Assembly: GCA_913058255.1 (NCBI GenBank)
Contig: CAJXQU010000001.1
Coordinates: 502,886 to 566,885 of the forward strand
Direction of reading: 5' to 3'
Length of the DNA stretch: 64,000 nucleotides
DNA from: an uncultured Pseudomonadota bacterium
GTDB taxonomy: Bacteria > Pseudomonadota > Gammaproteobacteria > CAJXQU01
Part shown: piece after piece, positions 14,408-53,075 of the stretch
Numbering within the stretch: position 1 is the first letter of the stretch
How the letters are laid out: each line of letters opens with the position of its first letter
The notes under the pieces: generated by a model
Told to the model about the DNA's origin: nothing
The model's input: the letters and a program-made list of their open reading frames with translations, nothing else
Database searches by the model: none
Translations under genes and position numbers: made by a program

Positions 14408-15955
14408 ATGAAAGATAAATTAATAATATTTGATACAACCTTGCGTGATGGCGAGCAAAGCCCCGGTGCTTCGATGACGAAGGACGAAAAACTTCGTATA
14501 GCGAAAGCACTAGAGCGCATGAAGGTAGATATCATTGAGGCTGGTTTCCCCATTGCAAGTCCTGGTGATTTTGAATCTGTTAAAGCTGTCGCAGAGATGG
14601 TGCAAGATAGTACGGTTTGTGGCTTAGCTAGAGCGCTGGATGGCGATATCGATCGAGCTGGTGAAGCATTAAAGTCTGCGAATTCGCCGAGAATTCATAC
14701 CTTCATTGCTACTTCACCGATCCATATGAAGACGAAGTTAATGATGGAGCCCGATCAGGTTGTTGAACAAGCGGTTCGTTCCGTCAAGCGAGCACGTAAT
14801 TTGATCGAGGATGTTGAGTTTTCAGCTGAAGATGCCGGTCGTTCAGATCCCGATTTTTTATGCCGAATTATAGAGGCGGTGATTGACGCTGGTGCGACGA
14901 CGGTGAACATTCCTGATACCGTCGGTTATAACCTCCCTGACCGATTTGGAGCTTTGGTTGCTGAGTTGATGGAGCGAGTCCCTAACAGCGATAAAGCCAT
15001 TTTTTCAGTGCATTGTCATAACGATTTGGGCTTAGCTGTCGGTAATTCTTTATCTGCTGTACTTCATGGTGCACGCCAAGTGGAATGTACTATCAATGGC
15101 TTGGGTGAACGCGCGGGTAACACTTCGTTAGAAGAAATTGTGATGGCGGTTAAAACGCGCCAAGATATTTTCAGCTGTGATACTGAGCTGGATACCACTG
15201 AAATAATGAACTGCTCACGATTGGTTGCAAATGTTACTGGCTTTCCTGTTCAGCCGAATAAAGCCATTGTCGGTGCAAACGCTTTTGCTCATGAGTCTGG
15301 CATACATCAGGACGGTGTGATCAAAAACCGTGAGACGTACGAGATCATGCGAGCTGAAGATGTCGGTTGGAATGCAAACCGAATGGTGATGGGCAAGCAC
15401 TCCGGACGCAATGCTTTTAAAACACGCCTAAAAGAATTAGGCGTAGAGTTTGAGCGAGAAGAAGATCTCAACGATGCTTTTAAACGCTTTAAAGATCTAG
15501 CGGATAAAAAGCATGAAATTTTTGATGAAGATCTACAGGCTTTAGTGACTGAAACCAACCTTGCAGGTGAAGAAGAGTGGGTTAAATTGATCGGCCTCAA
15601 GGTAAATTCTGAAACGGGTGAAACGTCTATTGCTGATATAACACTTTCGGTGAATGGTGTAGAAGAAACGGGATCTGCAGCGGGGAGTGGCCCAGTTGAT
15701 GCAACATTTATGGCGATAGAAGCAGTTGTGGAGAGTGGTTGTGATCTACAACTTTACTCCGTCAGTAATATAACGAGCGGAACTTCTTCACAAGGTGAAG
15801 TTGCGGTGCGTCTTGAGTTTGAAGACCGCGTTGTAAATGGCCAAGGTGCAGATACAGATATCATTGCTGCATCGGCAAAAGCCTATATCAATGCTCTGAA
15901 TACCATGATGACCGACAAAAATAAAAAACATCCGCAGGTAGCAGGTAAAATATGA
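14408..15955 (+). CDS. leuA: 2-isopropylmalate synthase
   Basis: Collinear with the E. coli LeuA sequence as recalled from memory ([12 protein letters not shown], HxHNDLG). Start moved to the internal Met matching the E. coli N-terminus. Confidence 0.9.
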
Positions 15956-17367: not shown

Positions 17368-18270
17368 ATGACAGATTACCCAACAATTGCAGATTTTGTC
17401 GGCAACACACCTTTAGTACGCTTACAACGCCTACCGTCGCAACAAGGACATTCAAGTAATACTATCCTTGTTAAATTAGAAGGTGATAATCCGGCAGGTT
17501 CAGTTAAAGATCGACCGGCGATCAACATGATCAATCGCGCAGAAGAACGCGGTGATATTAAACCCGGTGATACTCTCATAGAAGCTACAAGTGGTAATAC
17601 TGGAATAGCTCTGGCAATGGCGGCAGCGATCAAGGGTTATAGAATGATTCTGATCATGCCGGATAATATGAGTGAAGAACGACGCGCTTCAATGAAAGCA
17701 TACGGTGCCGAAATTATTCTTACGCCAGCAGAAGGAAGCATGGAGTCTGCAATAGATAAGTCACGAGAGATGGAAGCTGAAGGTATTGGTAAGGTCTTAG
17801 ACCAGTTTTCAAATCAAGATAACCCACTTTCTCATTTTGAAGGAACAGGCCCCGAAATTTGGCGTGATACTAAGGGAAAGATTACTCATTTTGTCAGCTC
17901 AATGGGAACAACAGGGACAATCATGGGAACGTCTAAATATTTAAAGAGTGTGAATTCTGACGTTCAAATAATTGGAGTTCAACCGGAAGGCGATGCTAGC
18001 ATCCCGGGCATTCGACGTTGGCCAGAAGAATATCTACCAAAAATTTATGATAGCCGTCGTGTTGATCGCGTTATGGATATGGATCAACAAACAGCTGAGA
18101 ATACGATGCGAGACATGGGAGCAAAGGAAGGGATCTTCTGTGGTGTTTCTTCTGGGGGGGGCGTTGCGGCAGCATTGAGGCTCTCTAACGAAGTGGAAAA
18201 TGCTGTCATCGTCGTGATTGTATGTGATCGGGGCGATCGTTATATATCCACTGGAGTTTTCCCCGGCTGA
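17368..18270 (+). CDS. cysM: Cysteine synthase B
   Basis: Collinear with the E. coli CysM sequence as recalled from memory (GNTPLVxLQR, SVKDRxA PLP-lysine, TSGNTG, GIFCGVSSGG). 300 aa. Confidence 0.85.
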   Translation: MTDYPTIADFVGNTPLVRLQRLPSQQGHSSNTILVKLEGDNPAGSVKDRPAINMINRAEERGDIKPGDTLIEATSGNTGIALAMAAAIKGYRMILIMPDNMSEERRASMKAYGAEIILTPAEGSMESAIDKSREMEAEGIGKVLDQFSNQDNPLSHFEGTGPEIWRDTKGKITHFVSSMGTTGTIMGTSKYLKSVNSDVQIIGVQPEGDASIPGIRRWPEEYLPKIYDSRRVDRVMDMDQQTAENTMRDMGAKEGIFCGVSSGGGVAAALRLSNEVENAVIVVIVCDRGDRYISTGVFPG

Positions 18271-18277
18271 TCTGATG

Positions 18278-20383
18278 CGTTTATTTCGCTTGATCTGCCT
18301 ATTAGTCTCAAGTGTTTTTTTCTCTAATATTTATGCTATTGAGAAACTAAATGTTGAGATTGAACAAGCTGAGTTTTCGGGCTGGCAATTTGAATCGGTA
18401 CACATTGACTTTGATCTCTCATCTCAGCCGTTATCTACAGAAAATGTTACGACGCCACATATTTCTATTTCTATCGATAAGCTAATTTCGAAACAAAATG
18501 AAACCTTTAAGAACATTAAAATTGCCTGTCCTTTAGCTTCATTTGAACATGTCCTGCAGTTTGATCTAATTGAGTGTCAGTCCGGATATTTTTCCGCGAA
18601 GCATAATCTACTAGGAAGGCTAGAAGGAAGGTTAGACTTTACCTTAGATACTGAAAATGAAAAACTTGAGGCGAATATTACGACTTTTAAACTGGCTGGC
18701 GGTTCTGTCGATCTAAAAATAAATGCTAAGAAAGGTGAGTGGAAGGTTGATCTTAAAGGTCGCTCACTGGATGTGGAGAAATTAAAAAAACTTCTAGCCT
18801 CTTTTGTAACATTACCGAATGTAACATCAGAAGAAACGGGAAAGATTAACCTTCAACTGAAAGCCAATGGACGAGGAGAGAATTTACGTTCAGCAAGAAT
18901 TAATATTAGAACATTTGATTTAGGTTTTGATGGCAATTCGGTAGCGGAAGAACTTGATGCAAAAATCAATATTTTATTAGAAAGAAAAGATGAGGAGTGG
19001 TTGATAAAGCAAGAGATTAGCTTGTTAGATGGCGCGGTTTATATAGAGCCTGGAGTTGAGGTTGGAGCAGTCAAACCGGGGTTTCTACTGGAGGTAGGAC
19101 AACAACCGATTACCCTTGTCATAGAAGCCGGTTGGAAAGAAGCGCGTATCCAAATTGATAAACTAACCTTTACTCACCCTGATGTGATAGCTATTAATAT
19201 CGAAGGCATTATATCTCCGGAAAATAATTCTCCGGTTGATGAACTATCCATGTCGATCTATACACAAGATTTAAATGCCGTATTTCCTACTTATCTTCAG
19301 CCGCTTTTATTTGGATCGGGCTTAGACGAAATAGAAATTATTGGCCAGATGGATCTAAAAATACAGCTACGGGAAAGTAGCATTACAGATTTTCATTTAG
19401 TGCTTGATGATGTTTATGCTGACGATCAGGCAAGCCGATTTCATATCGCTGGATTGAATGGCGATGTGCGTTTAAATAGTGATCCCAATGTAAAGGACTC
19501 GACAATGACATGGCAAGGTGGATCAATTTATCAGGTTAATATCGGTGCTAGTGATATGAAGTTATCTTCCAAAGGACGCTCGATGAAGTTGCGTGAAAAA
19601 ATGCGTATTCCTATCTTTGACGGTGAGCTTCAGGTTAATGATCTGGAAATGAGAAAGCTTGGCTTAGAAGACTATTCTGTACGAATCGAAAGCACACTAA
19701 CACCGATTACATTAAGCGAGTTTACAGAAGCGATAGGCTGGCCGATCATGGCGGGGAATATTTCTGGTGAAATTCCGGGTGTTACATACAATCAAGGCGA
19801 CTTGACTACAGAGGGTCGGTTAAGAGTGAGTGTTTTTGATGGTGACATTACGATTAGCCATCTTTGGATCGAAGATTTATTTGATTTAATCCCAACGCTT
19901 TATGCTGATATTGCCATAAAGAACATTGATCTAGGAATATTAACCAAAACATTTGAATTCGGAGATATAACCGGCCGGCTTGATGGCTATATGAATAATT
20001 TGCGTTTAGATAACTGGGAGCCTGTTCAGTTCGATGCGAAGCTTGCCACTCCTGAAAAAGATGACTCCAGACACCGTATCAGTCAACGTGCTATTGATAA
20101 TATAACGAGCATTGGCGGCGGTGGTTCGGATGTTGTCTCTCGTGGAATATTAGGTGTGTTTGAGGATTTTCCCTATTCTAAAATTGGCCTTAGTTGCCGT
20201 CTGATCGATAGCGTTTGTTTTATGAGTGGTGTCGAGAAAATTGAAAATGGTTATTATATTGTTAAGCGTGGTTTTCTGCCTCCTTGGTTAAATATAAAAG
20301 GTTACAATGATAAAGTTGATTGGCCAGAGCTATTAGACCGGTTGCAGAATATCTCTGAAACAGACAGTCCTACCATAGAATAA
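18278..20383 (+). CDS. Large secreted/periplasmic protein of unknown function (possibly AsmA/YdbH-like)
   Basis: Start moved to the Met preceding a clear signal peptide (MRLFRLICLLVSSVFFSNIYA). ~700 aa, mostly beta-rich. The ORF-track start overlaps cysM. The family call is weak. Confidence 0.35.
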   Translation, partial: RLFRLICLLVSSVFFSNIYAIEKLNVEIEQAEFSGWQFESVHIDFDLSSQPLSTENVTTPHISISIDKLISKQNETFKNIKIACPLASFEHVLQFDLIECQSGYFSAKHNLLGRLEGRLDFTLDTENEKLEANITTFKLAGGSVDLKINAKKGEWKVDLKGRSLDVEKLKKLLASFVTLPNVTSEETGKINLQLKANGRGENLRSARINIRTFDLGFDGNSVAEELDAKINILLERKDEEWLIKQEISLLDGAVYIEPGVEVGAVKPGFLLEVGQQPITLVIEAGWKEARIQIDKLTFTHPDVIAINIEGIISPENNSPVDELSMSIYTQDLNAVFPTYLQPLLFGSGLDEIEIIGQMDLKIQLRESSITDFHLVLDDVYADDQASRFHIAGLNGDVRLNSDPNVKDSTMTWQGGSIYQVNIGASDMKLSSKGRSMKLREKMRIPIFDGELQVNDLEMRKLGLEDYSVRIESTLTPITLSEFTEAIGWPIMAGNISGEIPGVTYNQGDLTTEGRLRVSVFDGDITISHLWIEDLFDLIPTLYADIAIKNIDLGILTKTFEFGDITGRLDGYMNNLRLDNWEPVQFDAKLATPEKDDSRHRISQRAIDNITSIGGGGSDVVSRGILGVFEDFPYSKIGLSCRLIDSVCFMSGVEKIENGYYIVKRGFLPPWLNIKGYNDKVDWPELLDRLQNISETDSPTIE

Positions 20384-23586: not shown

Positions 23587-24363
23587 TTAAAACCAATAAG
23601 ATAACCCCAGATGTGTACGTAGTTCAATGTCAGAACTGGATGTTAACGGGCTCTGTGTGATCGTACTTGGTAAATGCTCGTACATTAGGCCGCCTTTTAG
23701 TGAAAAGTGTTTAGCAATACGAGTTTTTACTTCAACGCCAAAGAAAGGAATCAGTGCTGAGTTTCCTTGATGTTTTTTTCTATTGGGAGTGGCTTCAGAA
23801 TTTTTTACGCCATAATAGTAGTCGACTACGTCTTTACTCTGCCAACGAAAACCTCCAGATAAACCAACGGTAAGCTCAGGACCACCATTCCATTTTTCAG
23901 TATAAAATGGCTCTCCAAAACGAATCTCAATTTCTTGACCTTTATGATTGCCCAGAACATCAGAGAGCACATGCAAGCTGAGTAAGCCATAATCAGTTTT
24001 TAAACTCGCACGACCACCAACCTCTAAAGATGATTGACGCTCACCCATTCCTTTTAGAATTGGAGAATCATCGTGTTCGTAACCATAATATAAAGTCTTA
24101 GCTAAAATTTCGAGATTATATTGTTCATTGTTATAAATGCTATATGAGATCGAGTTAGAATCTATATTGAGGCTTTCACCACGATACTCTAAGTGTAAGA
24201 GGACAATATTTTTATTTTTTTGTTCTGTATAAATAGATGAACGTATTGCATTGACACCTAGACCCCATTGTTCTGTAAATAAATCTTCCGCGAAAGAATG
24301 TTTAGGTACAAAAATGAACGTAGAAACTGATAGTATTAGGCATTTTTTTGATAGTGTATTCAT
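23587..24363 (-). CDS. MipA/OmpV-family outer-membrane beta-barrel protein
   Basis: Signal peptide, alternating amphipathic beta-strand pattern, C-terminal aromatic (…LGLSYWF). 258 aa, typical MipA size. Adjacent to a two-component system. Confidence 0.55.
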   Translation of the reverse strand: MNTLSKKCLILSVSTFIFVPKHSFAEDLFTEQWGLGVNAIRSSIYTEQKNKNIVLLHLEYRGESLNIDSNSISYSIYNNEQYNLEILAKTLYYGYEHDDSPILKGMGERQSSLEVGGRASLKTDYGLLSLHVLSDVLGNHKGQEIEIRFGEPFYTEKWNGGPELTVGLSGGFRWQSKDVVDYYYGVKNSEATPNRKKHQGNSALIPFFGVEVKTRIAKHFSLKGGLMYEHLPSTITQSPLTSSSDIELRTHLGLSYWF

Positions 24364-24480
24364 AGTTAATAAACTCTGATGATAGATTAAATAGTGAGTT
24401 CATCATAAGGAAAGAAAAATTTTAGCTCTGTAAGTACTTTGTGTTGATGTGTAACAAAATGTACAGTTGAAATGAAGCTC

Positions 24481-26073
24481 TCAAGTTTGAGAATAAATTG
24501 GCCAGCTTAAGGTAAAACAAGCTCCGCCTAAACGTGAGTCAGAAATATGTATTGAACCCTGGTGAGCTTCAATAATTTTTTTTGTAATAGCTAAGCCGAG
24601 ACCATGCCCTCCGGTTTTTCGATGACGACTGATATCAAGTCTAGTGAATGCATTGAAAATACGTTCTCTGTCTTCTACTGGAATACCAATACCATCATCT
24701 TCAATACGGATCTGTAGCAGGTCCTTCTTAACGAAAAGCGATAAGCTTATGGTTTGGTTGCCGTAAAGGCTGGCGTTGCGCAATAGGTTATGAATGGCGC
24801 GAGCAAAATGCCGAGGGTTTATTTGTGTTGTGAGATTGAGAGGTAGACCATTAAAAAAATGTATAAATGTTTTGTCACTCATATAGCTAGATGTTTGTTC
24901 TATTATATTTTCTAGCCAAGGGATAACTTCGATTGTTTCAAAATCCTCTGTAGTTTTTAAACGCTCAAAACGAGCGTAGCGAAGTAGCTCATTAACAAGA
25001 TCTTCTAACTCATCAACATCTGAATTTAAGCCGCCTAGATAACGCTCCCTAGAATCTTCATTACTATTAGATAGCATATCGAGACCAAAACGCATTCGTG
25101 CGATGGGAGTGCGCAACTCATGAGAGACTGCGTTGGTTAATTCACGGTGGCCTGTAACTAGATGACTAACTCGATCAGCCATAGTGTTAAATTGTTGCGC
25201 GAGTTTGCCAAGAGATTTTGTCTTTTTTATATCGGTACGAGCAGTTAATTCACCTCGACCAAAATCATCCGCGGTTTGGCTAATATTCTTTATAGATAAC
25301 CAAAGTGGACGTAACCATAAGAGCAATGCTGTTGCGAGTGAGGCGAGAAAAACTCCAAGTAAAGCTGACATAAATGTCATGAGGCTAATGGGTTGTTTGA
25401 TCGGTCCAAATTGTAAGGTGTAGGGTGAATTTTTCAATTTACCAAAAAATCGCCAACGGTTAGTATTATGGTCAAGTGCTATTACCTTTCCATTCTCCAT
25501 AAGTATTTTTTGTTTTGAAGATAATGAAAGTTCTGAGTCTTTGACCAAACTAATTGGAAAGCCGAAATGAGGTTGCAGGTTTTTGATCAGCTGTACCCAC
25601 GTCGTTTGTGGTGCTTTGAGCAACTCTTGTTCTAGTAGGTAAAATGTTCCTTGAGCTTGTTTATGATCCTCTTCTGTTTGGCTTTCAGAAAATGCGATGG
25701 CTAATACTGAACCAGAATCTTGTAATCTGGAAATATTGTAATTAGCATCATCAATGTCAGGATGTAAAGATTCCCCTGCATTAATTTTGGTCCAATTTTT
25801 TTTATTGATCAGAACATTTTCAGGTTCTAATATCTGTAGGGGATAACCAAAGTGTTCTTGTAAATTATGTAGAGCTTTTTGTTGTTCAGCATTACTTAAG
25901 CCCTTTAATTTTTTATCTAGTAAATAAAATGAGCCACGGGTTAGTTTATCTTCGTATTGATCTATTTTTTTAGATAAAATGATGTCAGGTAGATATTCAA
26001 TTGCTAGAACAAAACCAACCAAAAATACAGTAAGGAATAAAAATAGAGGAAGGAAAATTCTAAACATTACCAA
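24481..26073 (-). CDS. Sensor histidine kinase (two TM helices, HAMP, HisKA, HATPase_c) with ~200-aa periplasmic domain
   Basis: H-box SHELRTPI, with N, G1 (DDGIGI) and G2 (GGHGLGL) boxes. Overlaps the response-regulator stop by 7 nt. Confidence 0.85.
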   Translation of the reverse strand: MVMFRIFLPLFLFLTVFLVGFVLAIEYLPDIILSKKIDQYEDKLTRGSFYLLDKKLKGLSNAEQQKALHNLQEHFGYPLQILEPENVLINKKNWTKINAGESLHPDIDDANYNISRLQDSGSVLAIAFSESQTEEDHKQAQGTFYLLEQELLKAPQTTWVQLIKNLQPHFGFPISLVKDSELSLSSKQKILMENGKVIALDHNTNRWRFFGKLKNSPYTLQFGPIKQPISLMTFMSALLGVFLASLATALLLWLRPLWLSIKNISQTADDFGRGELTARTDIKKTKSLGKLAQQFNTMADRVSHLVTGHRELTNAVSHELRTPIARMRFGLDMLSNSNEDSRERYLGGLNSDVDELEDLVNELLRYARFERLKTTEDFETIEVIPWLENIIEQTSSYMSDKTFIHFFNGLPLNLTTQINPRHFARAIHNLLRNASLYGNQTISLSLFVKKDLLQIRIEDDGIGIPVEDRERIFNAFTRLDISRHRKTGGHGLGLAITKKIIEAHQGSIHISDSRLGGACFTLSWPIYSQT

Positions 26074-26780
26074 GCATCCTTTACAAATAAATAACCTTTA
26101 CCCCAAATGGTTTTAATCTTGTTAGGATGAACAGAGTTATCGCCGAGTTTATTTCTTAATCGAGAAATTCGAATGTCAACCCAGCGATCAAGACCATCGT
26201 AATCAATTTTTCTGACAGCCAGTAATATTTCTTCGCGACCCATGATTTCTCCAGCATGAGAACAGAGGAAGTATAATAAATCAAATTCATTACTGGTGAG
26301 TTCAAGTTCTTTTTGGTCTAAGATTGCTTGGCGCGATGATTGATTAATTTGCAATGAACCAAAATTGAACGTTGTTGTTTGGTCTATGTTTTTCTCGAAC
26401 TTCGTCTGGCGACGCAAAAGTGCATTAACTCTGGCAAGTAAAACACGTGGTTCAACAGGTTTGATCACATAATCATCTGCCCCCAGTTCTAATCCAATAA
26501 TTTGATCAATGTCTTCATCTTTTGCTGACAGAATTAATACCGCCCCTACATATTGAGATTGAACTTGTTTATAAACGTTAAGTCCATCCAAACCTGGAAG
26601 CATAAGATCAAGTATGACTAAATCTGGTTGTTCTGTAATAATTCGACTAACGGCCAGATCCCCACGTGTCTCATGAGAGATAAGGAAGTTACTCTTTTCA
26701 AGATATTCTTTTATCAGATCGGCAAGACGTTGATCATCCTCGATTAATAAGATGTGCTCTTTATTCGTTAAGTTTGACAT
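26067..26780 (-). CDS. OmpR-family response regulator
   Basis: Receiver domain (DD…D…K pattern, ILLIEDD start) plus a winged-helix trans_reg_C C-terminus (RWVDIRISRLRNKL…GKGYLF). Confidence 0.85.
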   Translation of the reverse strand: MSNLTNKEHILLIEDDQRLADLIKEYLEKSNFLISHETRGDLAVSRIITEQPDLVILDLMLPGLDGLNVYKQVQSQYVGAVLILSAKDEDIDQIIGLELGADDYVIKPVEPRVLLARVNALLRRQTKFEKNIDQTTTFNFGSLQINQSSRQAILDQKELELTSNEFDLLYFLCSHAGEIMGREEILLAVRKIDYDGLDRWVDIRISRLRNKLGDNSVHPNKIKTIWGKGYLFVKDAW

Positions 26781-28377: not shown

Positions 28378-29400
28378 TTGAAAATATTATTAATAATCGC
28401 CGTTTTTGCATTTATTTTTTGGTCGTATGGTTCTACGGTCAAAGATATTTATTTAGTGTATAAAAAACGTAAGTTAAATAGCCAAATGAAAAAGATGGAA
28501 GTAGAGGCTCGATCTGACGAGGTGCGAACTATCAGAAGAACAGCTAAGAAAAAACAACTGGAACCATTTGTTGAACTGATTAATGCCGCTAGCTCAGATA
28601 CGATTGGAGAGTTAGTGTCTACCAATTTCAAGTCACCGTTATTAGAAAAATTTGCCCAACAGCATGATGGAAATGCTAAGGCACATTTTTTATATGGAAA
28701 CTTGTTGATAGATAAGGCTTGGAAAGCTCGAAGTGGTGCTGTTGCCGAGCAAGTTTCAGAAAAACAATTTGATGGTTTTTTCAACTTTCTCTCTCAGTCA
28801 GAACAGTCGCTACTCAAATCTAGGGATCTGGACAGAACTTTTGTTGGTGTCTACTCGAGTTTGCTTACCGTCGCTATGGGGCAAAGTGATAAGGAACGAG
28901 CTTATCAAATCTATAAGGAAGCTTCTCAGCTAGCCCCCGAGCGGCTGGACTATCATTTAAATATGTTAGTTTTACTCACTGAGAAATGGCTGGGAACAGA
29001 AGAAGAAATGTTTGAGTTTGCACGTAAGCATGCTCGTAGGGTTTCAACAGGCCCGCTTAAAGGTTTAATTCCTGCGGCTCATTTTGAGGCTCAACTCTTC
29101 TTGGAAGCAGATGAAAAGGAGGCGTATTTTAGTCAATCAGAGATACAACAAGAGATTCGAGAAGCTTATGCAGGCGTTGAAAATATAGAGGCTGGTGTCG
29201 GGTTTAACGAAAGGCATCAGTATTTTCTGGCATTGAACTTCTTTGTGGTCATTTTCCAGTATATGGAAGACAACAAAACCGCGCGTGAAATTTACGAAAA
29301 AATTGGTGGAAACCATACAGATAGCCCTTGGGGGAATATCGGTAAAGATACTCGCGAAGCATTCATGAAATACAAAAGGTTGGCTTATGAAGGGAAATAA
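28378..29400 (+). CDS. Hypothetical N-terminally anchored protein, first gene of a four-gene operon
   Basis: Single N-terminal TM helix followed by a ~310-aa soluble, largely helical domain. Its stop abuts the ATG of the next gene (TAAATG). Confidence 0.4.
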   Translation: MKILLIIAVFAFIFWSYGSTVKDIYLVYKKRKLNSQMKKMEVEARSDEVRTIRRTAKKKQLEPFVELINAASSDTIGELVSTNFKSPLLEKFAQQHDGNAKAHFLYGNLLIDKAWKARSGAVAEQVSEKQFDGFFNFLSQSEQSLLKSRDLDRTFVGVYSSLLTVAMGQSDKERAYQIYKEASQLAPERLDYHLNMLVLLTEKWLGTEEEMFEFARKHARRVSTGPLKGLIPAAHFEAQLFLEADEKEAYFSQSEIQQEIREAYAGVENIEAGVGFNERHQYFLALNFFVVIFQYMEDNKTAREIYEKIGGNHTDSPWGNIGKDTREAFMKYKRLAYEGK

Positions 29401-45467: not shown

Positions 45468-45496
<29 letters not shown>

Positions 45497-47429
45497 TGTC
45501 AGGTAATGCAGTTTGAGTATTTTGATATTGACTATCGAGAAATTCTGGCTTCCCACGTAGGAACTTGGCCCAAGCTAAATCGCGCTGAATTTGTGCATGT
45601 TCATTTAGATATAAGTTTCCAGTTTCGCCTTCAAATTTCCCACCAATCTGCATTCTTAAACGCCCAAGTTGCGGAATGACCTTATAGGCATCGATACCTA
45701 ATGCAAACAAGCGCAGGAAAGCAGCATTGTTGTCTGGCCAATTTTGTTGCATTGCTAACGGTGTGGCAGGGTCTATGATTTGGTTTTTGATCATCCAAGG
45801 CATGTCACCGATGATAACGCCTTCTAGATCAAGATCAGGTTCTCCGTGTGGAGGCAGTCCGAAAGCGTGAGATGTTGTTAAAACAGGGATCCCAGAAGCT
45901 CGATGAAAGAGTAATTGTGGACGGATCTGACGAGCTTGAGTCGGGCGAGCAGCCATAAAGATAAAGTCCATATCTTTTCTTGGGCGAGGCTCGAATTTAA
46001 TTCTACGATTTAGCTCATTGGTTAGTTCATTGTAACGTTCTTTACTGTCGTCTATGTCTAACAACTTGATGACAGCGGCAGAGAAGTCCACTTCTGTTGT
46101 AGAAAATTTTTGTTGATCAACGATCACTCCACCGAGCGCTTCGTATTTTTCTTGGAAGGCTGTAAATAAACGATCACCCCAAGCGTCTTCAGGCGTGATC
46201 GCAAGCGCCTGACGGAATCCTTCGGCCCACGCTTTTTCTGCCACTTGAGCGGCTTCTTGTTCTGGTGAAAGCCCAAATTGATAAAAATGGTTGGCATCAA
46301 TGTGATGACTAAACTCAGCGAGTTCTTCGGTACTTAAATGATTCAAAGCCAATGTCTTTACAGGAAGTTCTGATAAAGAAAGCAGCATTTTTACAGCCTC
46401 TTTTTCGAGAGGCCCAACAACCAGATCAACACCTTCATCAACAGCACGTTGGTAAACCTCAAGAATATTACTGGCATCGGCTTGATAAACATGAACCATC
46501 GGTTGTTCGAGTTGATCATTCTCGCCATACCAAGCAGAAAGAAAGCCATCCCGAACGGCAGCGCCTGCTTGGGCAAAACGACCGGTGTTTGGAAGCAGTA
46601 ATGCGATGGTTGATATCTTCTTACCTAACACTTCACTTTTAGTGAATAGCTCACGAAGCACAGGAGATTCAGCTGCGTGGTCAGGGTAGTGTAAACGCCA
46701 CTCGGCCACCTTGTCGGCAAATAAGCTAGTGTCGAAAATCGATTCTCTTGCGATCAAATTCAACTCAAGCCAGCCAGTAAGTTGAGGATGAATGTTTCTT
46801 TCTGTTTGAGCGAACTGTTCTGAATCAAATTGATCGATAGTTGTCCAGATTGTGCGTCGGTTTGTATCTTGTTCAAGCTCGGATTCGAGCAAAGGATCAA
46901 TTAACGTTCGCGCTTGAATGGCTTCCAATGAAGATTCTAAGGTTTCAAATGCCGAAATTTGCATCGCTAGAATCTGTTTTTTTGACATTGGACTAGCAGC
47001 GGCAAGATCGATTTGACTCAAGGCTTGAATAACCTGCTCAGGTTGTTGGTCTATTTCAGCGATGTGAGCGGTGATCAAATGGTAACGATTACTCAAAGAT
47101 TGATCTAAAACATCAACATCAATGAGAGCCAGTGTTTTTCTAGCATTCAAACTATCGCCAGCTTGAATATAAGCTTCAGCAGCGGTCAGCTGGTAAACCT
47201 GCTTTAGATTTGATGGCGTTTCATCTTTTAGCAATGCTGGCGCAGCATCAGCCAGTTTCAGGAATTCTTCCGCACCAGCGGTATAATCACCAGATGCAAT
47301 CAACTGATTAGCAGTTTCAATTTGAGCTGCAGCGATCTCTTCTTGGCTTGGGCCAGTTGCACAACCTGCGGTGATCAACAAAGCTAATGTAGCAGGAAGC
47401 GTTCTTTTGAGTGTTGGATGAAGTAACAT
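45468..47429 (-). CDS. lpoA: Penicillin-binding protein activator lipoprotein LpoA
   Basis: 653 aa. Lipobox LITAGC, N-terminal TPR-like region, C-terminal periplasmic-binding-protein-like domain. Conserved position between yraN and divergently transcribed rsmI. Confidence 0.75.
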
Positions 47430-47507: not shown

Positions 47508-48356
47508 GTGTCACAAGAACAAGCATCAAAAACTGGAATTTTATATGTCGTGTCGACACCAATCGGAAATCTTGACGATATGACCCCCAGAGCCACAGCC
47601 ACCTTGCAGAATGCAGATCTAATTCTGGCCGAAGACACACGCCACAGTGGTGGTTTGTTGAAAAAATTTGGAATTACTACTTCAGCAAAAGCTTACCATG
47701 ATCATAATGAACGTGAGTTTGCCCCAAAGATTATCGAGCGTTTGGAAGCTGGTGAAAGTATCGCACTGATCAGCGATGCAGGAACGCCTTTAGTGAGCGA
47801 TCCGGGGTATTTTCTGATTAAAAGTGCACAGCAAGCCGATATACAAGTGACTCCGGTGCCAGGATCCTGTGCGTTGATAGCGGCCTTAAGTGCATCAGGT
47901 TTGGCTTCTGATAGGTTTACCTTTAATGGTTTTTTACCACCGAAACAAAATGCTCGACAGAAGCGACTGCAAGCATTAAAAATGGACACCGCAACACAAA
48001 TTTTCTACGAAGCCCCGCATCGTTTAGCTGCTTGTATTTCAGATCTCAAGGAGGTGATCGGTGCTGAGCGGAATGCTTGTATCGCTCGTGAGCTAACCAA
48101 GATGTATGAAACGATTCGAACAGACTCACTAGAAAACTTAAACAAATGGCTGGCTCAAGATCCGGGGCAATGTCGAGGAGAAATCGTCATCATTGTTGAA
48201 GGCAACCCAGCAGAGCAGATAGATGACGGCGAAGATCAACGTGTACTCGATATTTTATTGGAATATCTATCCCCAAGTCAGGCCGTGGCAGCGACGGTAA
48301 AGATCACGGGTGGTAAGAAAAATCAGCTCTATAAAATGGCGCAGGAAAAGCAATAG
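47508..48356 (+). CDS. rsmI: 16S rRNA (cytidine1402-2'-O)-methyltransferase RsmI
   Basis: Tetrapyrrole-methylase fold protein (LYVVxTPIGNLxDxTxRA, ExxPHR). 282 aa. Confidence 0.85.
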   Translation: MSQEQASKTGILYVVSTPIGNLDDMTPRATATLQNADLILAEDTRHSGGLLKKFGITTSAKAYHDHNEREFAPKIIERLEAGESIALISDAGTPLVSDPGYFLIKSAQQADIQVTPVPGSCALIAALSASGLASDRFTFNGFLPPKQNARQKRLQALKMDTATQIFYEAPHRLAACISDLKEVIGAERNACIARELTKMYETIRTDSLENLNKWLAQDPGQCRGEIVIIVEGNPAEQIDDGEDQRVLDILLEYLSPSQAVAATVKITGGKKNQLYKMAQEKQ

Positions 48357-48368
48357 CTCTCGATCAAG

Positions 48369-49520
48369 CTAGTCTAAAAACTCGCCGCCATGCCGTAACA
48401 AGCCTTTGCTACGCGGAATATAAATATCAACGACACGCTGTGTATCAAACACTAAAGTCAGGTCAGGTAGTGCAGGATAGCGAATATTTTCAACCTCATC
48501 CTCAGCAACAGATGTTTCTGAACTTTGTCTTTCTGGCGCGATCAGAGACAAGGTGATGGGTAACGCATCCAAATCTATGGTTGATAGGCAGCTGCTGGGG
48601 AGATTGTCCAAAAGTACCTTGATAGAGTCATCTGGTGAAAGTAATTTCTCAATTTTATATTGATAAGCGTCAGTGGCTTCAATACGAGAGATGGCTAGGC
48701 TTAGATCATCTCGATTGATAATTTCCAGAGTAAAGTTAATATCATTATCAAGGTTACTTTTTCTTTCGATATGTAAAGAAAAATCCATCTTTCGTTGCAT
48801 CATCAAACGGCTGGCATCACTCAAAGGCAGGTTGTTTTCAGTGTTCAGGTAGCAGTCAAGGATAGAAACCCAACCAGTTGAATACTCTTTCAAAACCCCA
48901 GCATATTCGACTTGCTCATCATCGACCTTATCCGTTTCAAAAACAACACGTCGACTAATATAATGTTCTAACACAGGATCAAACGCAGCGGTGCTGACCA
49001 TGCCCAACGTACCACTCCCAATTTTCTTAAGGTAATTGCCTTGGCCTTCTAGCAAGGTTGAAGAAGCTTTCTTTTGTACGCGGCTCATCAACAGGCCGAT
49101 GGACTCATCAATCGCTTCACGAAACGCGACCATAAAATTACGAATAGATCGCTTAATGCGACGAACAATACTTGGATTTTTAATCCGTTTAATTTCTTTT
49201 AACCGACGTTTTTGATTCTTAGGAGTAAGCTCATCGTGAAACCGAAAAATCACATCGATATCATTCATTTGTTCAGAAAAAATGATATAACTAGTCAGCA
49301 AATTCTTGCGACGGTTGGTATAGGGGCGACTGAAGATCAGCTCGATCGCATTTGAGAATAGGTTAAGCTTTCCCCAAATGCGTTTACCTTTTAATCGCGT
49401 TGTAACATGAAAACCCCGCAAGTCTTTTAATACACGATCCATTCGACGATGTTGAACAACACTGCCTACCAGAGCACCGACGAAGACCAGCAAAATACTA
49501 AAAAAGAGAACTTTATCCAT
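48369..49520 (-). CDS. Hypothetical membrane-anchored basic protein (383 aa)
   Basis: Long ORF with good coding periodicity and an N-terminal TM helix. No family recognised. Confidence 0.4.
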   Translation of the reverse strand: MDKVLFFSILLVFVGALVGSVVQHRRMDRVLKDLRGFHVTTRLKGKRIWGKLNLFSNAIELIFSRPYTNRRKNLLTSYIIFSEQMNDIDVIFRFHDELTPKNQKRRLKEIKRIKNPSIVRRIKRSIRNFMVAFREAIDESIGLLMSRVQKKASSTLLEGQGNYLKKIGSGTLGMVSTAAFDPVLEHYISRRVVFETDKVDDEQVEYAGVLKEYSTGWVSILDCYLNTENNLPLSDASRLMMQRKMDFSLHIERKSNLDNDINFTLEIINRDDLSLAISRIEATDAYQYKIEKLLSPDDSIKVLLDNLPSSCLSTIDLDALPITLSLIAPERQSSETSVAEDEVENIRYPALPDLTLVFDTQRVVDIYIPRSKGLLRHGGEFLD

Positions 49521-49623: not shown

Positions 49624-49994
49624 GAGAGTTGGCCAGGCAGTCGCTGTATGCAAATACAGAGGAAAGTCCGGGCTCCATAGGGCAGGGTGCTAGATAACGT
49701 CTAGGGGGCGAAAGCCTACGGAAAGTGCCACAGAAAACAGACCGCCACTCGGCTTCGGCCGAAGGTAAGGGTGAAAAGGTGCGGTAAGAGCGCACCGCGC
49801 TAGTGAAAGCTAGTGGCAGGGTAAACCCCACCTGGAGCAAGACCAAATAGGGGAATGCGCCGCTTCGAGCGGTATCGTGTGGTCCGCATGAGTTCCCGGG
49901 TAGGTTGCTAGAGGTGTTACGGCGACGTACATCCCAGATGAATGACTGTCACACCATATGGTGTACAGAACCCGGCTTATCGGCCAACTCTTTT
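49624..49994 (+). ncRNA. rnpB: RNase P RNA (bacterial type A)
   Basis: Matches the E. coli M1 RNA as recalled from memory: AGGAAAGUCCGGGCUCCAUAGGGCAGGGUGC, GGAAAGUGCCACAGAAAA, GGUAAGGGUGAAAAGGUGCGGUAAGAGCGCACC, ACAGAACCCGGCUUAUCGGCCAACUC. P1 closes by pairing AGUUGGCC with GGCCAACU. Confidence 0.95.
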
Positions 49995-50015
49995 TCAACT
50001 TCATAATGGTTAGTT

Positions 50016-50969
50016 ATGGATACAGAACACAAAAAAATATATTCAATTTTTTATCCTAGATATTTAGAGAAAATTAAACAGATTTCAGATGAAAAATTGA
50101 AATTTGTTCAATATACAAGCGCTGAATCTGCGGTGGAAATTATTCGTAAAGGTGAAGTATGGTTGCGAAATTCACAGTGTATGAATGATTTTTCAGAGGT
50201 GCATCACGGGTTAGATTGTCTGGTTAAATCTTACAATACAGGTGATCAAGGCCGGTTATTTAAGGATATTTTAGATGAAATGTATCCTGGCATTACTGAC
50301 AGGCTGAGTTCTCTTTTTGACAGTTGGGCCTCATCGTTTAAGGCTAACACATACCTTGCATGTGTTTCAGAACACCCTCTCGAAGAGAATGAATATGGAC
50401 GATTGTCTATGTGGCGAGCCTATGGCGGAGATCGCCCAGTCGCGATAGTTCTTAATCATGAGCCATTCACAAACACAACAGATGCCTTTAAGGCTTATAG
50501 TCACCCTGTTCATTATGTAAACCATGAAGATTTCCGTAAAGAGTTTCAATCCATTACTGCAAGGATCAGAAAAAATTTTGGTTTTATACAAGGTTTGGGA
50601 GAAAGCCGTGTCACCAATAACTTATTTGATCTGTTTAAAACAACTGCTCTATGTAGTAAACATCCCGGTTTTAAAGAAGAAAGAGAGTGGCGGGTGGTCT
50701 ATACGCCTGAACAAGAAACGTCACAACACATCAAGACTAGTATCGAAACGATAAATGCTGTTCCCCAAGAAATATGTAAGATCCCTCTTAAAGATATACC
50801 TGATGAGGGAGTCGTTGGGCTCTCAGTCCCTGAGTTTATTGACCGAATTATCATCGGTCCTAATGATCAAGAGGAGGTAATGAAAAAAACATTTGAGAAG
50901 TTATTGGGTGAAGCTGGATGTGAACGTCCAGAAGAAAAAGTATTCGTTTCGGGGATCCCTCTTCGTTAA
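50016..50969 (+). CDS. Hypothetical protein, DUF2971-like, in an AT-rich islet
   Basis: 317 aa. The N-terminal region (LKFVQYTSAESAVEIIRKGEVWLRNSQCMNDFSE) resembles the FNDPFE-type motif remembered for DUF2971. GC visibly lower than flanking core genes. Confidence 0.35.
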   Translation: MDTEHKKIYSIFYPRYLEKIKQISDEKLKFVQYTSAESAVEIIRKGEVWLRNSQCMNDFSEVHHGLDCLVKSYNTGDQGRLFKDILDEMYPGITDRLSSLFDSWASSFKANTYLACVSEHPLEENEYGRLSMWRAYGGDRPVAIVLNHEPFTNTTDAFKAYSHPVHYVNHEDFRKEFQSITARIRKNFGFIQGLGESRVTNNLFDLFKTTALCSKHPGFKEEREWRVVYTPEQETSQHIKTSIETINAVPQEICKIPLKDIPDEGVVGLSVPEFIDRIIIGPNDQEEVMKKTFEKLLGEAGCERPEEKVFVSGIPLR

Positions 50970-51387
50970 GTTACATTTTTTTGAATGTTAGAAAGCTTGA
51001 TGTCTTTATATTAAAAATAAATTTTCTCAATTTTTTGATCCTCGACACAAAATTCTCAAACATGAAAATTATAGTAAAGCTCTTTTTGTATAGTTTGATC
51101 TATACCTTTCAACGGAGCGAAAAATCTTGGTTAGTGGTTAAATAGTTTTATATACTGAGGCTTCTATGATTCAAGTGGTGAGCTTGAGATCCTAACTTAA
51201 TTATCAAACAACTAGTCCATCAGTTTTTGTGAGAGAGCTTTTGAAAAATAAATATGAGGTCGATCAGGATGGGTTCAAAGGTGCTTATGTATTTTGAACG
51301 GATTGTAATGAGAAGGTTGAAATGATCAGCCAACTTAGAAAAAATCAATCGCTGTTCTTGAAAGTAGTCCCTTATTAGTGTGGATTC

Positions 51388-52278
51388 TTACTCTTTAAAT
51401 TTTCTTATACGCAAAAAACTAGCAAACTTAGGAATACCTTTTCGAGTTAAGCCAAAGTATTTATAAGTGATTTGTGTGCCCACCTTAGGTGGGGTTTTTC
51501 TCTCACTATCTTTAAAGCCACCTCCAATCTTAAATCGTTTCCCATCAGGCATTTCTACTAAGATAGATCCAAGCATGCCTTTATATTTACCTTTTCCGGG
51601 TAAGTGAGCGATCACAATGGCCTCGGCATCTTGATAGGTTTTTACCTTTAAGATGTCACTTGAACGACCTGCTCTATAGAGTGAATCTCCTCGATGTAAC
51701 ATCAAGCCTTCACCATCTAGCTTAATAACGTGATCGAGCTTTGCTTGAAGTTCTGTGTGATCAGTCACCTTGTATTGTTGGATCAACTGGATATGAGCGT
51801 TGTTCTGAATAATCAAGTTGGCTTTTAGCTCGGCTAGTCGATGAGTAAATGTTTTGGACGAAGTTGGGAGATCAAAGATCATGTATTTAACTTGTCGCCA
51901 TTCTGAGTCGATAGGTTCGATTTTTCTGACGGTACTGACAAGCTGTTCAAAGCTACCGCGCTTTATCCATAGTTCACCATCGAGGGGGATAGTCGGCAGA
52001 TTTACCGTAAACCAGGCTGGTGCGTGATACTGATTTCCTTGGCGTGAAATAAGCTTTTCTCCATCCCAATAGGCACGCACACCATCAAGTTTCTCACTGA
52101 CCCAATATTGATCGAGCGGTTCATTTTGTTGATAGATCTGGGCAAGAGCGAGTTTGGGAGACGTTGCAGCTTTTGTTGGTCGGGCAGTTGAATTTAAGCA
52201 GCCGAGACAGAAAAGCAATAGCAGACAAAAAACATAGAAATGCCGTAATTTGACTTTTTTTGAGAATAATTCTGCCAT
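51388..52278 (-). CDS. Minimal ATP-dependent DNA ligase of the LigE type, with N-terminal signal peptide
   Basis: Motif I KLDGVRAYWDG (adenylation lysine), motif III LDGELW, motif IV EGLMLH, motif V ILKVK. ~270-aa mature size. Hydrophobic N-terminal leader typical of periplasmic LigE. Confidence 0.75.
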   Translation of the reverse strand: MAELFSKKVKLRHFYVFCLLLLFCLGCLNSTARPTKAATSPKLALAQIYQQNEPLDQYWVSEKLDGVRAYWDGEKLISRQGNQYHAPAWFTVNLPTIPLDGELWIKRGSFEQLVSTVRKIEPIDSEWRQVKYMIFDLPTSSKTFTHRLAELKANLIIQNNAHIQLIQQYKVTDHTELQAKLDHVIKLDGEGLMLHRGDSLYRAGRSSDILKVKTYQDAEAIVIAHLPGKGKYKGMLGSILVEMPDGKRFKIGGGFKDSERKTPPKVGTQITYKYFGLTRKGIPKFASFLRIRKFKE

Positions 52279-52503
52279 GAATATAGAGCATCATAATTCA
52301 TGTTTTAGACAGGGTAGCTAAAAACTGTTCGATCTCATCATTTGTTACATTTCATCTTGATGAAAAAATGCCACTTGTAAGAATCTACTTTAAGTAATAT
52401 TACTAAGCAAATGATACTAAGAAAGTAATTTTTTCAACTTCTCTTGAAGTGTCAATAATTCGCCTAAGTCATTGTTAGAAAAGAAAGAATCACGGGTTTT
52501 TAT

Positions 52504-52532
52504 GCTTGACAGAGTGGGCTGGATGAACGACT
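52504..52532 (+). promoter_or_regulatory. Candidate sigma70 promoter of the dcw cluster (Pmra): TTGACA-17 bp-GACTAT
   Basis: TTGACA at 52504-52509 and GACTAT at 52527-52532, ~85 nt upstream of the mraZ start. Confidence 0.45.
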
Positions 52533-52543
52533 ATCCTACAAGT

Positions 52544-52567
52544 GGTGGGGAGTTGTGGATCATTGTG
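52544..52567 (+). promoter_or_regulatory. MraZ operator-like direct repeats GTGGG-N-GTGGA-N-GTGGA at ~10-bp spacing
   Basis: GTGGGgagttGTGGAtcattGTGGA lies immediately downstream of the putative -10. This mirrors the E. coli arrangement of TGGGN repeats bound by MraZ. Confidence 0.5.
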
Positions 52568-52616
52568 GATCAATAGCAACTTCAAAATGAAATTAACAAG
52601 GTGTTTTGAGAGTCTC

Positions 52617-53075
52617 ATGTTTAGCGGTAAAAGCTCATTAAATTTGGACAGTAAAGGACGATTGGCAATACCCAGTCGGTATCGTGCTCGTCTGGAGGAA
52701 ATGAGTGAAAGTGACGTGGTGGTGACGATCAATCCTTTAGACCGATGCGTTTGGATATACCCACGAACAGAATGGGAAATTATCGAAGCAAAATTACGCC
52801 AGCTATCTGATTTTGATAAGCAGAGCCGTCGTACCAAACAGATGATGTTGGGGTATGCCGAAGATTTCCATTTGGATTCCCACGGACGAATTCGAATTCC
52901 TTCTAGCTTGAAAGAATATGCTGGATTAGAGAAAGAAGCGGTCATGTTAGGACAGGGTAACAAATTTGAACTCTGGGATGAATCGGCTTGGAACACACAA
53001 CATGATGAATGGTTGGCCAGCCTTGAAGATACGTCTGGTGAGCCTTCAGAACCATTACAACAGTTATCGCTTTGA
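52617..53075 (+). CDS. mraZ: Division/cell-wall cluster transcriptional regulator MraZ
   Basis: 152 aa from the internal Met (MFSGKSxLxLDSKGRLAIP), matching E. coli MraZ length and N-terminus. The ORF-track extension covers the promoter. Confidence 0.85.
   Translation: MFSGKSSLNLDSKGRLAIPSRYRARLEEMSESDVVVTINPLDRCVWIYPRTEWEIIEAKLRQLSDFDKQSRRTKQMMLGYAEDFHLDSHGRIRIPSSLKEYAGLEKEAVMLGQGNKFELWDESAWNTQHDEWLASLEDTSGEPSEPLQQLSL

Follow-up and report, generated by a model that had tools for sequence, protein, structure and literature searches.

When two accessory genes stand side by side between core genes of a bacterial chromosome, did they arrive and do they act together, or do they share an address by chance? 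The question is raised by a 2263-nucleotide (nt) interval, positions 50016–52278, in a 64,000-nt stretch of contig CAJXQU010000001.1 (assembly GCA_913058255.1, from an uncultured gammaproteobacterium), which we call the window. The interval follows rnpB, the gene for RNase P RNA, and ends before mraZ, the gene that opens the dcw cluster; it carries a gene for a 317-amino-acid (aa) protein of the family DUF2971 and ligE, a gene for an ATP-dependent DNA ligase. A sequence-only reading of this DNA, correct in its coordinates and gene identifications (the 317-aa open reading frame (ORF), an ORF-free gap, the ligase), had taken the interval for an AT-rich islet, had seen in its place next to a stable-RNA gene a hint of horizontal acquisition, and had raised the question of whether the DUF2971 protein and the ligase act together.

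We consider it likely that the interval instead holds two independent accessory genes, one a Lig E ligase fixed in its clade, the other a swappable, ADP-ribosyltransferase (ART)-like gene of defence type. The two are adjacent in two of five clade genomes and nowhere else among the sampled loci: three of the five clade members carry ligE without DUF2971, no DUF2971 gene lies within 8 kilobases (kb) of any of the 75 other ligE loci, and no ligase accompanies DUF2971 in any of its nine other contexts. Because the genes never co-occur outside the clade, a functional link between them is unsupported; they are neighbours by accident of the insertion site, and not partners. They converge on an orphan spacer without detectable feature, and an export leader is predicted on the ligase and none on the DUF2971 protein. 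The claim of one acquired islet does not survive this comparison, in which the ligase appears old in the clade, the DUF2971 gene is a separate item of a variable slot, and no sign of joint action was seen. Both genes belong to kinds that are already described, and the finding is real and fairly ordinary; its practical value is small and current understanding is not overturned.

ligE in the clade

How long the ligase gene has been in place can be judged from its relatives. A scan of species-representative genomes with RsmI returned L006 (RsmI 79% identical) and L007 (77%), both metagenome-assembled genomes (MAGs) of uncultured Gammaproteobacteria, along with many distant Gammaproteobacteria, and a scan of metagenomes with the ligase added the further clade members L086/L087/L091 and L092. 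In all four of these relatives ligE lies directly upstream of mraZ and on the opposite strand. The ligases are about 69–72% identical to that of the window, on par with the divergence of the flanking core proteins (RsmI, 68–79%; RsmH, 70–76%; FtsI, 76–82%; LpoA, 57–64%), and in every relative the GC (guanine plus cytosine) content of ligE lies within 3 percentage points of that of its locus. At least 14 more distant gammaproteobacterial loci (L010, L013, L014, L016, L017, L018, L020, L023, L024, L026 and L027 among them) have rnpB followed by mraZ some 230–680 base pairs (bp) on, with no ligase, and neither rnpB nor mraZ occurs within 8 kb at the 75 other ligE loci (full-length matches at no more than 57% identity).

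Because the four relatives share the position and the distant loci lack the ligase, ligE appears from these comparisons to be an old, fixed, clade-level insertion that entered the interval once, in the clade ancestor. On this view the gene came to lie between rnpB and mraZ before the members of this uncultured gammaproteobacterial clade diverged, and has stayed head-to-head with mraZ since, while its composition adjusted fully to the host. The sequence-only reading had itself proposed that the rnpB–mraZ interval be compared among relatives: that comparison finds ligE constant in the clade and the DUF2971 slot variable, bears out the view that the interval holds accessory DNA, and refutes a recent acquisition of the ligase, which keeps the same position, orientation and host-like GC content in four relatives out of four. 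What the window adds is an environmental gammaproteobacterial clade in which ligE is fixed in the chromosome and in which it and the dcw (mraZ) promoter have a conserved divergent region in common.

The Lig E ligase

The ligase gene (51388–52278, minus strand, 296 aa, head-to-head with mraZ) encodes, as had been read from the sequence, a minimal ATP-dependent ligase with the motifs of Lig E, a family defined by Williamson et al. (2016, Mol Microbiol 99:274, as cited in PMC10799422). Its only domains, PF01068 (residues 56–213) and PF14743 (residues 227–292), span the mature protein and leave no further domain. The protein scores 383.7 bits with the NCBIfam equivalog NF006592 (cutoff, 200) and at most 61 bits, far short of the cutoffs, with the NCBIfam models that come next; the models for LigB, LigC and LigD all fall far under their cutoffs. 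Solved Lig E structures are matched closely (4D05, E 1e-81, over the whole mature ligase; 6GDR, 2e-70; 8U6X, Ngo-Lig E, 3e-64), whereas the Chlorella virus ligase is matched at 5e-10 only. Motif I, with the lysine predicted to be adenylated, is K63-L-D-G-V-R68 (52075–52092, minus strand), found by pattern match and aligned to KLDGIR of 4D05, so that the lysine whose absence would have told against a Lig E ligase is present; motifs III (DGEL, 100), IV (EGLM, 190) and V (LKVK, 210) follow. By its domains, profile matches and motifs, the protein is a member of Lig E.

The N-terminal secretion leader that had been proposed for the ligase is also borne out by prediction. A heuristic places a Sec signal peptide on codons 1–32 of ligE (MAELFSKKVKLRHFYVFCLLLLFCLGCLNSTA, followed by RP; 52183–52278, minus strand), with a basic n-region (K7, K8, K10, R12), a 15-residue hydrophobic run (F14–L28) and a putative cleavage site, S-T-A32/R33, that has small residues at −3 and −1. 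The Kyte-Doolittle maximum of the leader is 3.04 and no value elsewhere in the ligase exceeds 1.25; the alignment with the leaderless 4D05 construct begins at residue 41 of the ligase, and comparable leaders stand on the ligases of all four relatives. A lipoprotein reading of the leader was rejected, as C24-L-G-C27 misfits the lipobox consensus, in which L, V or I is needed at −3.

The ligase would be exported via Sec, with removal of the leader near A32/R33, and K63 would be adenylated by ATP, as published biochemical and genetic work on the family suggests. The view that the role of Lig E is unsettled is partly out of date, a contribution to biofilm formation and to transformation by nuclease-damaged DNA having been published for Neisseria gonorrhoeae: the knock-out is viable, with impaired biofilm formation and adhesion (PMC10799422), and Lig E boosts transformation by nicked or cohesive-ended extracellular DNA in an ATP-dependent manner, from which an extracytoplasmic repair of transforming DNA has been proposed (2026 preprint, bioRxiv 10.64898/2026.03.22.713542). 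The function of the ligase in this organism is suggested by homology. Compared with the characterised Lig E proteins of Psychromonas SP041 (4D05), Alteromonas mediterranea (6GDR) and N. gonorrhoeae (8U6X), it has the same build of nucleotidyltransferase and oligonucleotide-binding (OB) domains, the same motifs and leader, and likewise a proteobacterial host. No functional difference from known Lig E can be named, and the ligase is set apart only by its location between rnpB and mraZ and by the divergent spacer that it shares with the dcw promoter.

The divergent ligE–mraZ spacer

This spacer (52279–52616, 338 bp, 34.0% GC) is 74–80% identical by blastn to its counterparts in L006, L007, L086 and L092, and the alignment of the five spacers has a mean column identity of 72% and an invariant CTTGACA block. 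A promoter-like site, TTGACA-16-AAAAAT, faces ligE (52455–52428, minus strand). Just upstream of mraZ stands a triple GTGGR repeat with a 10-nt period (52545–52569, plus strand), which occurs once in the window and in none of 100 shuffles, is conserved in the relatives, and appears to resemble the operator repeats of MraZ in Escherichia coli. The sharing of one conserved region by ligE and mraZ raises the question of whether the ligase is co-regulated with envelope and division genes.

The gene on the other side of the spacer, mraZ (52617–53075, plus strand; PF02381, E 7e-34), forms the right border of the interval and starts at the ATG at 52617 (MFSGNSSL, 152 aa), as do its orthologues in L006, L007 and L092; the GTG at 52542 given by a mechanical ORF call (177 aa) is overextended against these orthologues and was rejected. 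The spacer also contains a long AT-rich block, TACTTTAAGTAAAATTACTAAGCAAATGATAGTAAAAAAGTAATTTTT, about 150–200 bp upstream of mraZ.

A variable slot after rnpB

If ligE is constant, what changes is the DNA on its other side. The rnpB gene (49625–49995, plus strand; bacterial class A, Rfam RF00010, 330.9 bits, full length 1–367) ends in ...GGCCAACTCTTTTT, which L006, L007, L086 and L092 also have in conserved form; right after it the sequences diverge. The 3′ end of rnpB is the left border, and the ligE stop codon the right border, of a variable slot. Across the five genomes compared, the slot is empty in L092, where 7 bp separate the ligE stop from the rnpB 3′ end; in L006 it holds a 141-aa lipoprotein-like ORF and a PIN/VapB (VapBC) pair; and in L007 it holds two paralogous ORFs of 135–137 aa, two more ORFs and an IS110-family transposase. 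L086 has a DUF2971 gene whose product is 63% identical to that of the window and whose ATG lies 22 nt after rnpB; in the window the distance is 20 nt (49996–50015), and the junctions of the two genomes are only loosely similar. In other lineages a gene between rnpB and mraZ encodes a catalase, a Calx-beta/propeller protein or a PNPOx-like protein, and this varied cargo makes the interval a recurrent home for accessory genes.

Accessory and defence ‘hotspots’ flanked by core genes exist in bacterial chromosomes. The slot in the window likewise has conserved borders, a genome-specific content (toxin-antitoxin genes, an insertion sequence (IS), defence-like genes) and an observed empty state, but it is very small (0–3.5 kb, one to five genes) and has neither an integrase nor att repeats. 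No integrase was found between 49.9 and 52.6 kb. The only exact repeat, a 12-mer, TTTTTCAACTTC, at 49991–50002 (the rnpB junction) and at 52430–52441 (the ligE–mraZ spacer), does bracket DUF2971 and ligE as the repeats of a single islet might. In a test devised post hoc, 42 of 5000 simulations gave a repeat that overlaps the rnpB junction, but exact 12-mer repeats at any place in the region turned up in 35% of simulations; in the four relatives there are only matches of 6–8 nt, and we treat the repeat as chance. The joint marks of an integrase-mediated island at a stable-RNA gene, an integrase and a direct repeat of the RNA 3′ end, are thus not seen here.

A more ambitious proposal is that the bases between the rnpB 3′ end and the ligE stop form an integrase-less exchange site, at which small defence or toxin-antitoxin cargo is swapped by recombination between the conserved flanks, and that the DUF2971 gene is perhaps expressed by read-through from the strong promoter of rnpB; we think this rather unlikely. 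No sigma-70-like promoter was seen on the plus strand within or after rnpB and no clear Shine-Dalgarno sequence before the DUF2971 ATG, and the gap is just 20–22 nt; read-through is therefore possible. If it occurs, it would tie a potentially toxic effector to the transcription and 3′ processing of a stable RNA. The integrase-less slot at the rnpB 3′ end, the possible read-through and the conserved ligE–mraZ region make the locus mildly interesting.

The part of the slot between the two convergent genes of the window, an orphan non-coding spacer of 418 bp (50970–51387, 31.6% GC), agrees with the ORF-free gap of about 420 bp that had been described: it has no ORF of 60 aa or more, the longest being a 54-aa ORF with a TTG start. 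Neither blastn nor tblastx found a similar sequence in the fetched loci or elsewhere in the window, Rfam gave nothing at E up to 1, folding is unremarkable on both strands (z −0.03 and +0.62) and a terminator-like site is lacking; no hidden content came out of these searches. In the slot of L007 the DNA that separates the ligE stop from the gene for the IS110 transposase contains two copies of a direct repeat of about 50 nt, AAACAGATCTGTCTTTTAATTGAGCTGTCGAAGGGGATTATGTCGAGTCT (15430–15700), which may be an IS-end or target-related sequence.

The DUF2971 protein

The other gene of the interval (50016–50969, plus strand) encodes 317 aa, and the profile search that confirms its DUF2971-like character matches PF11185 at 44.1 bits against a cutoff of 22, with the whole profile (1–89 of 89) on residues 132–227. 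Its 2181 detected homologues are, among those listed, mostly about 317 aa long and alignable end to end at 44–63% identity, with hosts that include Sedimenticola, Neptuniibacter, Hydrogenophaga and an Opitutaceae MAG. An alignment of 40 sequences has 40 invariant columns, including YT (33–34), WxR (49–51), CxSEH (116–120), SMWRAY (131–136) and KHPGFxEEREWR (215–226). The last of these contains an ExE-type motif, E221-E222-R223-E224 (codons at 50676–50687, plus strand), in which conservation is complete at E221 and E224 and at least 90% at E222; Y136 of SMWRAY is invariant too.

DUF2971 has been placed in the H-Y-E clade of ARTs, near DarT and AbiGi; for this family a conserved Tyr and an ExE motif are described, along with a motif I His that is only poorly conserved (PMC12522546). 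The predicted model of the window protein (predicted local distance difference test, pLDDT, 93.9) has an ART core most like DarT and Tpt1, to which large helical inserts and an extra C-terminal domain are added; in this predicted model, then, the protein has the ADP-ribosyltransferase fold. DarT is a single-stranded DNA thymidine ADP-ribosyltransferase, the toxin of the DarTG toxin-antitoxin system, and the window protein differs from it in being about 100 residues longer, in its helical inserts and C-terminal domain, and in having Gln for the motif I His. DarTG itself was rejected as an identity for the gene: Pfam reports DUF2971 alone and not DarT, and no macrodomain gene (DarG) lies next to it, the flanks being rnpB and the 418-bp spacer without an ORF of 60 aa or more.

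The contexts of its homologues are those of mobile genes. One is cargo of a Tn7-like transposon, beside an AAA_13 ATPase; others lie directly after RelE and helix-turn-helix (HTH) genes, straight after a phage integrase, beside nucleotidyltransferase and HicB-like genes, next to RHS genes near csrA, and beside baseplate and sheath-like genes. Relatives are encoded on 41 IMG/VR viral contigs and 106 plasmids, some of them next to QatD. Across 10 DUF2971 contexts no conserved partner gene was seen. The transposon, restriction-modification, toxin-antitoxin, integrase, viral and plasmid contexts agree with a mobile, defence-type gene.

Two of these loci have features of their own. In the Opitutaceae MAG (L175, 1981–14361) the DUF2971 gene stands between HsdS and HsdR in a type I restriction-modification operon that also has DUF1016/YhcG, RhuM and KTSC genes and two ORFs without family match, a compact defence island. 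In Hydrogenophaga sp. 2FB (L174, 6054–7960) two DUF2971 genes (289 and 319 aa) follow a small HTH_3 gene in tandem, which suggests a local duplication or a two-component variant of the family.

A likely function in defence

What might such a gene do? The closest described case is Aristaios (pUCCL641_199), a 316-aa DUF2971 protein of a Lactococcus plasmid that confers phage resistance consistent with abortive infection (PMC11381338). Aristaios and the window protein are alike in length (316 against 317 aa), in matching PF11185, in an ART-like predicted fold, in having no obligatory partner and in being accessory cargo; they differ in host, a Firmicute plasmid for the one and a Gram-negative chromosome for the other. 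A tblastn search of plasmids (E up to 1e-3) gave no match on a Lactococcus plasmid, and any relationship to Aristaios is therefore distant. By this analogy the DUF2971 gene most likely encodes an effector of the Aristaios type, defensive or toxic, that needs no partner gene. Its product would work in the cytoplasm, using NAD+ to ADP-ribosylate a target that is either nucleic acid or protein, and may act, as Aristaios does, as a single-gene phage defence of the abortive-infection type. We found no published enzymatic activity of the family in PMC12522546 or PMC11381338. With thousands of members in mobile and defence contexts, the subfamily of about 317 aa is well conserved and easily modelled, and is a convenient target for asking whether Aristaios-like DUF2971 proteins are ADP-ribosyltransferases, and what they modify.

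Several points weigh against the reading of two independent genes, one of them defence-type. The position of the motif I His is Q32 (FVQYTS) in the window protein and H in other members, in keeping with the weak conservation published for this His; Y136 and the ExE residues probably correspond to the published Tyr and ExE motifs, an assignment made from sequence. No PADLOC model matches the protein (best E 0.03), and it has no match in 50,697 GenBank phage records. The likeness to Aristaios was drawn through the shared Pfam family and the published description, and NAD+ use and phage resistance are predictions for this subfamily. A further point is the history of the gene in the clade: DUF2971 is present in the window and L086 only, and L086 is closest to L006 (RsmI 83%, ligase 80%), which is without it. 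A protein tree (neighbour-joining) pairs the window protein with that of L086 (P0002), the window on the longer branch, and P0002 is as close to P0011 (66%) and P0004 (65%), both from unrelated contexts; one gain with later replacement or two gains may have occurred, either of which fits a tree that does not separate them. For the ligase, the leader call is a heuristic drawn from residue pattern and hydropathy, and no competence genes were seen among the scanned ORFs of the window, so that a transformation role of Lig E here is proposed only by analogy.

Other readings of the DUF2971 gene

The DUF2971 protein could instead be a modifier of RNA or DNA ends of the Tpt1/KptA type, a 2′-phosphotransferase or nucleic-acid 5′-phosphate ADP-ribosylase that serves RNA metabolism and not defence. 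Such a role would suit a gene 20 nt after rnpB, but we hold it to be unlikely: the alignment to Tpt1 covers just 112 residues and is no better than that to DarT, and Pfam shows no Tpt1/KptA family match; the gene is patchily distributed and missing from three clade members, and elsewhere its neighbours are mobile, defence or toxin-antitoxin genes and no stable-RNA gene.

Parts of the family have been predicted to be exported toxins or effectors against other cells, in Legionella and other pathogens. For the window protein this is quite unlikely, as neither a signal peptide nor a recognisable secretion domain is seen in its sequence, the gene has no secretion-system genes near it in the window, and there is no adjacent immunity gene, the 418 bp downstream being without an ORF of 60 aa or more; most contexts of the homologues are moreover restriction-modification, toxin-antitoxin or transposon loci and not secretion loci.

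To much the same degree it is improbable that the gene is no more than a passenger, inactive or in decay, with poor expression and without a current function in this genome. The lack of a recognisable promoter or Shine-Dalgarno sequence before its ATG, the Gln at motif I and the longer branch of the window protein in the pair with P0002 would all fit such a passenger. The ORF, however, is full length and keeps all 40 invariant and 40 nearly invariant positions of the alignment, the motif I Gln is common to most of the protein's closest homologues, and its codons are well suited to the host (rank 53 of 56). After these alternatives we still favour, for the DUF2971 gene, an effector of the Aristaios type, defensive or toxic, that works as a single gene.

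Base composition and the single islet

The AT-richness from which the idea of an islet started is real but weak, and on its own uninformative about acquisition. The interval has 38.3% GC against a window mean of 41.5%, about 1.5 standard deviations low (the standard deviation being 2.2% for windows of 2263 nt), which places it at the 8.7th percentile of equal-sized windows. The sequence-only reading was right in seeing a dip, and overstated it: the ligase gene, with 41.3% GC, ranks 22nd of 56 ORFs and is likewise average in GC at third codon positions (GC3, rank 32 of 56) and in synonymous-codon fit (rank 29 of 56), and the most AT-rich part of the window lies elsewhere, at 23.9–25.4 kb (35–36% GC; mipA and a two-component system). 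The region around it, 23587–26780 (35–37% GC), encodes MipA and a histidine kinase/response regulator pair, so that a GC dip as large as this can be found at ordinary genes. The gene for DUF2971 is slightly low in GC (38.5%, z −1.18; GC3, z −1.05) with typical, host-like codon usage, and the two spacers (31.6% and 34.0% GC) fall inside the distribution for spacers of the window (36.2 ± 4.5%); the dip stems from these two ordinary spacers together with the DUF2971 gene. The plot of GC content and codon usage that had been suggested for the window thus gives a weak dip, with an average ligase and host-like codons in DUF2971.

A single acquired islet whose genes cooperate on DNA is therefore highly improbable. 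The genes are adjacent in the window and L086, more distant Gammaproteobacteria lack the interval, DNA is a substrate of DarT-like enzymes and the 12-mer brackets both genes; but the reading is contradicted by L092, where ligE stands beside an empty slot, as well as by the occurrence of each gene without the other in all the loci outside the clade, by the compositionally average ligase, by an export leader predicted for one protein alone, and by the lack of an integrase and, in the relatives, of any att-like repeat.

Other features of the window

The window is an ordinary piece of core chromosome of a gammaproteobacterium (about 41.5% GC), with proS, ilvB/ilvC, leuA, mla genes, a murA-type gene of the EPSP-synthase family, hisD, cytochrome bc1 genes, lpoA (45468–47429, minus strand), rsmI (47508–48356, plus strand) and the dcw cluster, in which rsmH, ftsL and ftsI follow mraZ in that order. 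Two ORFs on the plus strand, 18218–20383 (721 aa) and 28378–29400 (340 aa), have no Pfam match at the thresholds used.

Between rsmI and rnpB lies a 383-aa ORF (48369–49520, minus strand) with a hydrophobic N-terminus and no Pfam, NCBIfam or PADLOC match. It is kept at 73–76% in L006 and L086 and is absent from L007 and L092, and because of this presence and absence among the relatives the rsmI–rnpB interval is variable as well. A protein with a PEP-CTERM-like C-terminal tail is found there in L006 and L007, and an extra epimerase in L086.

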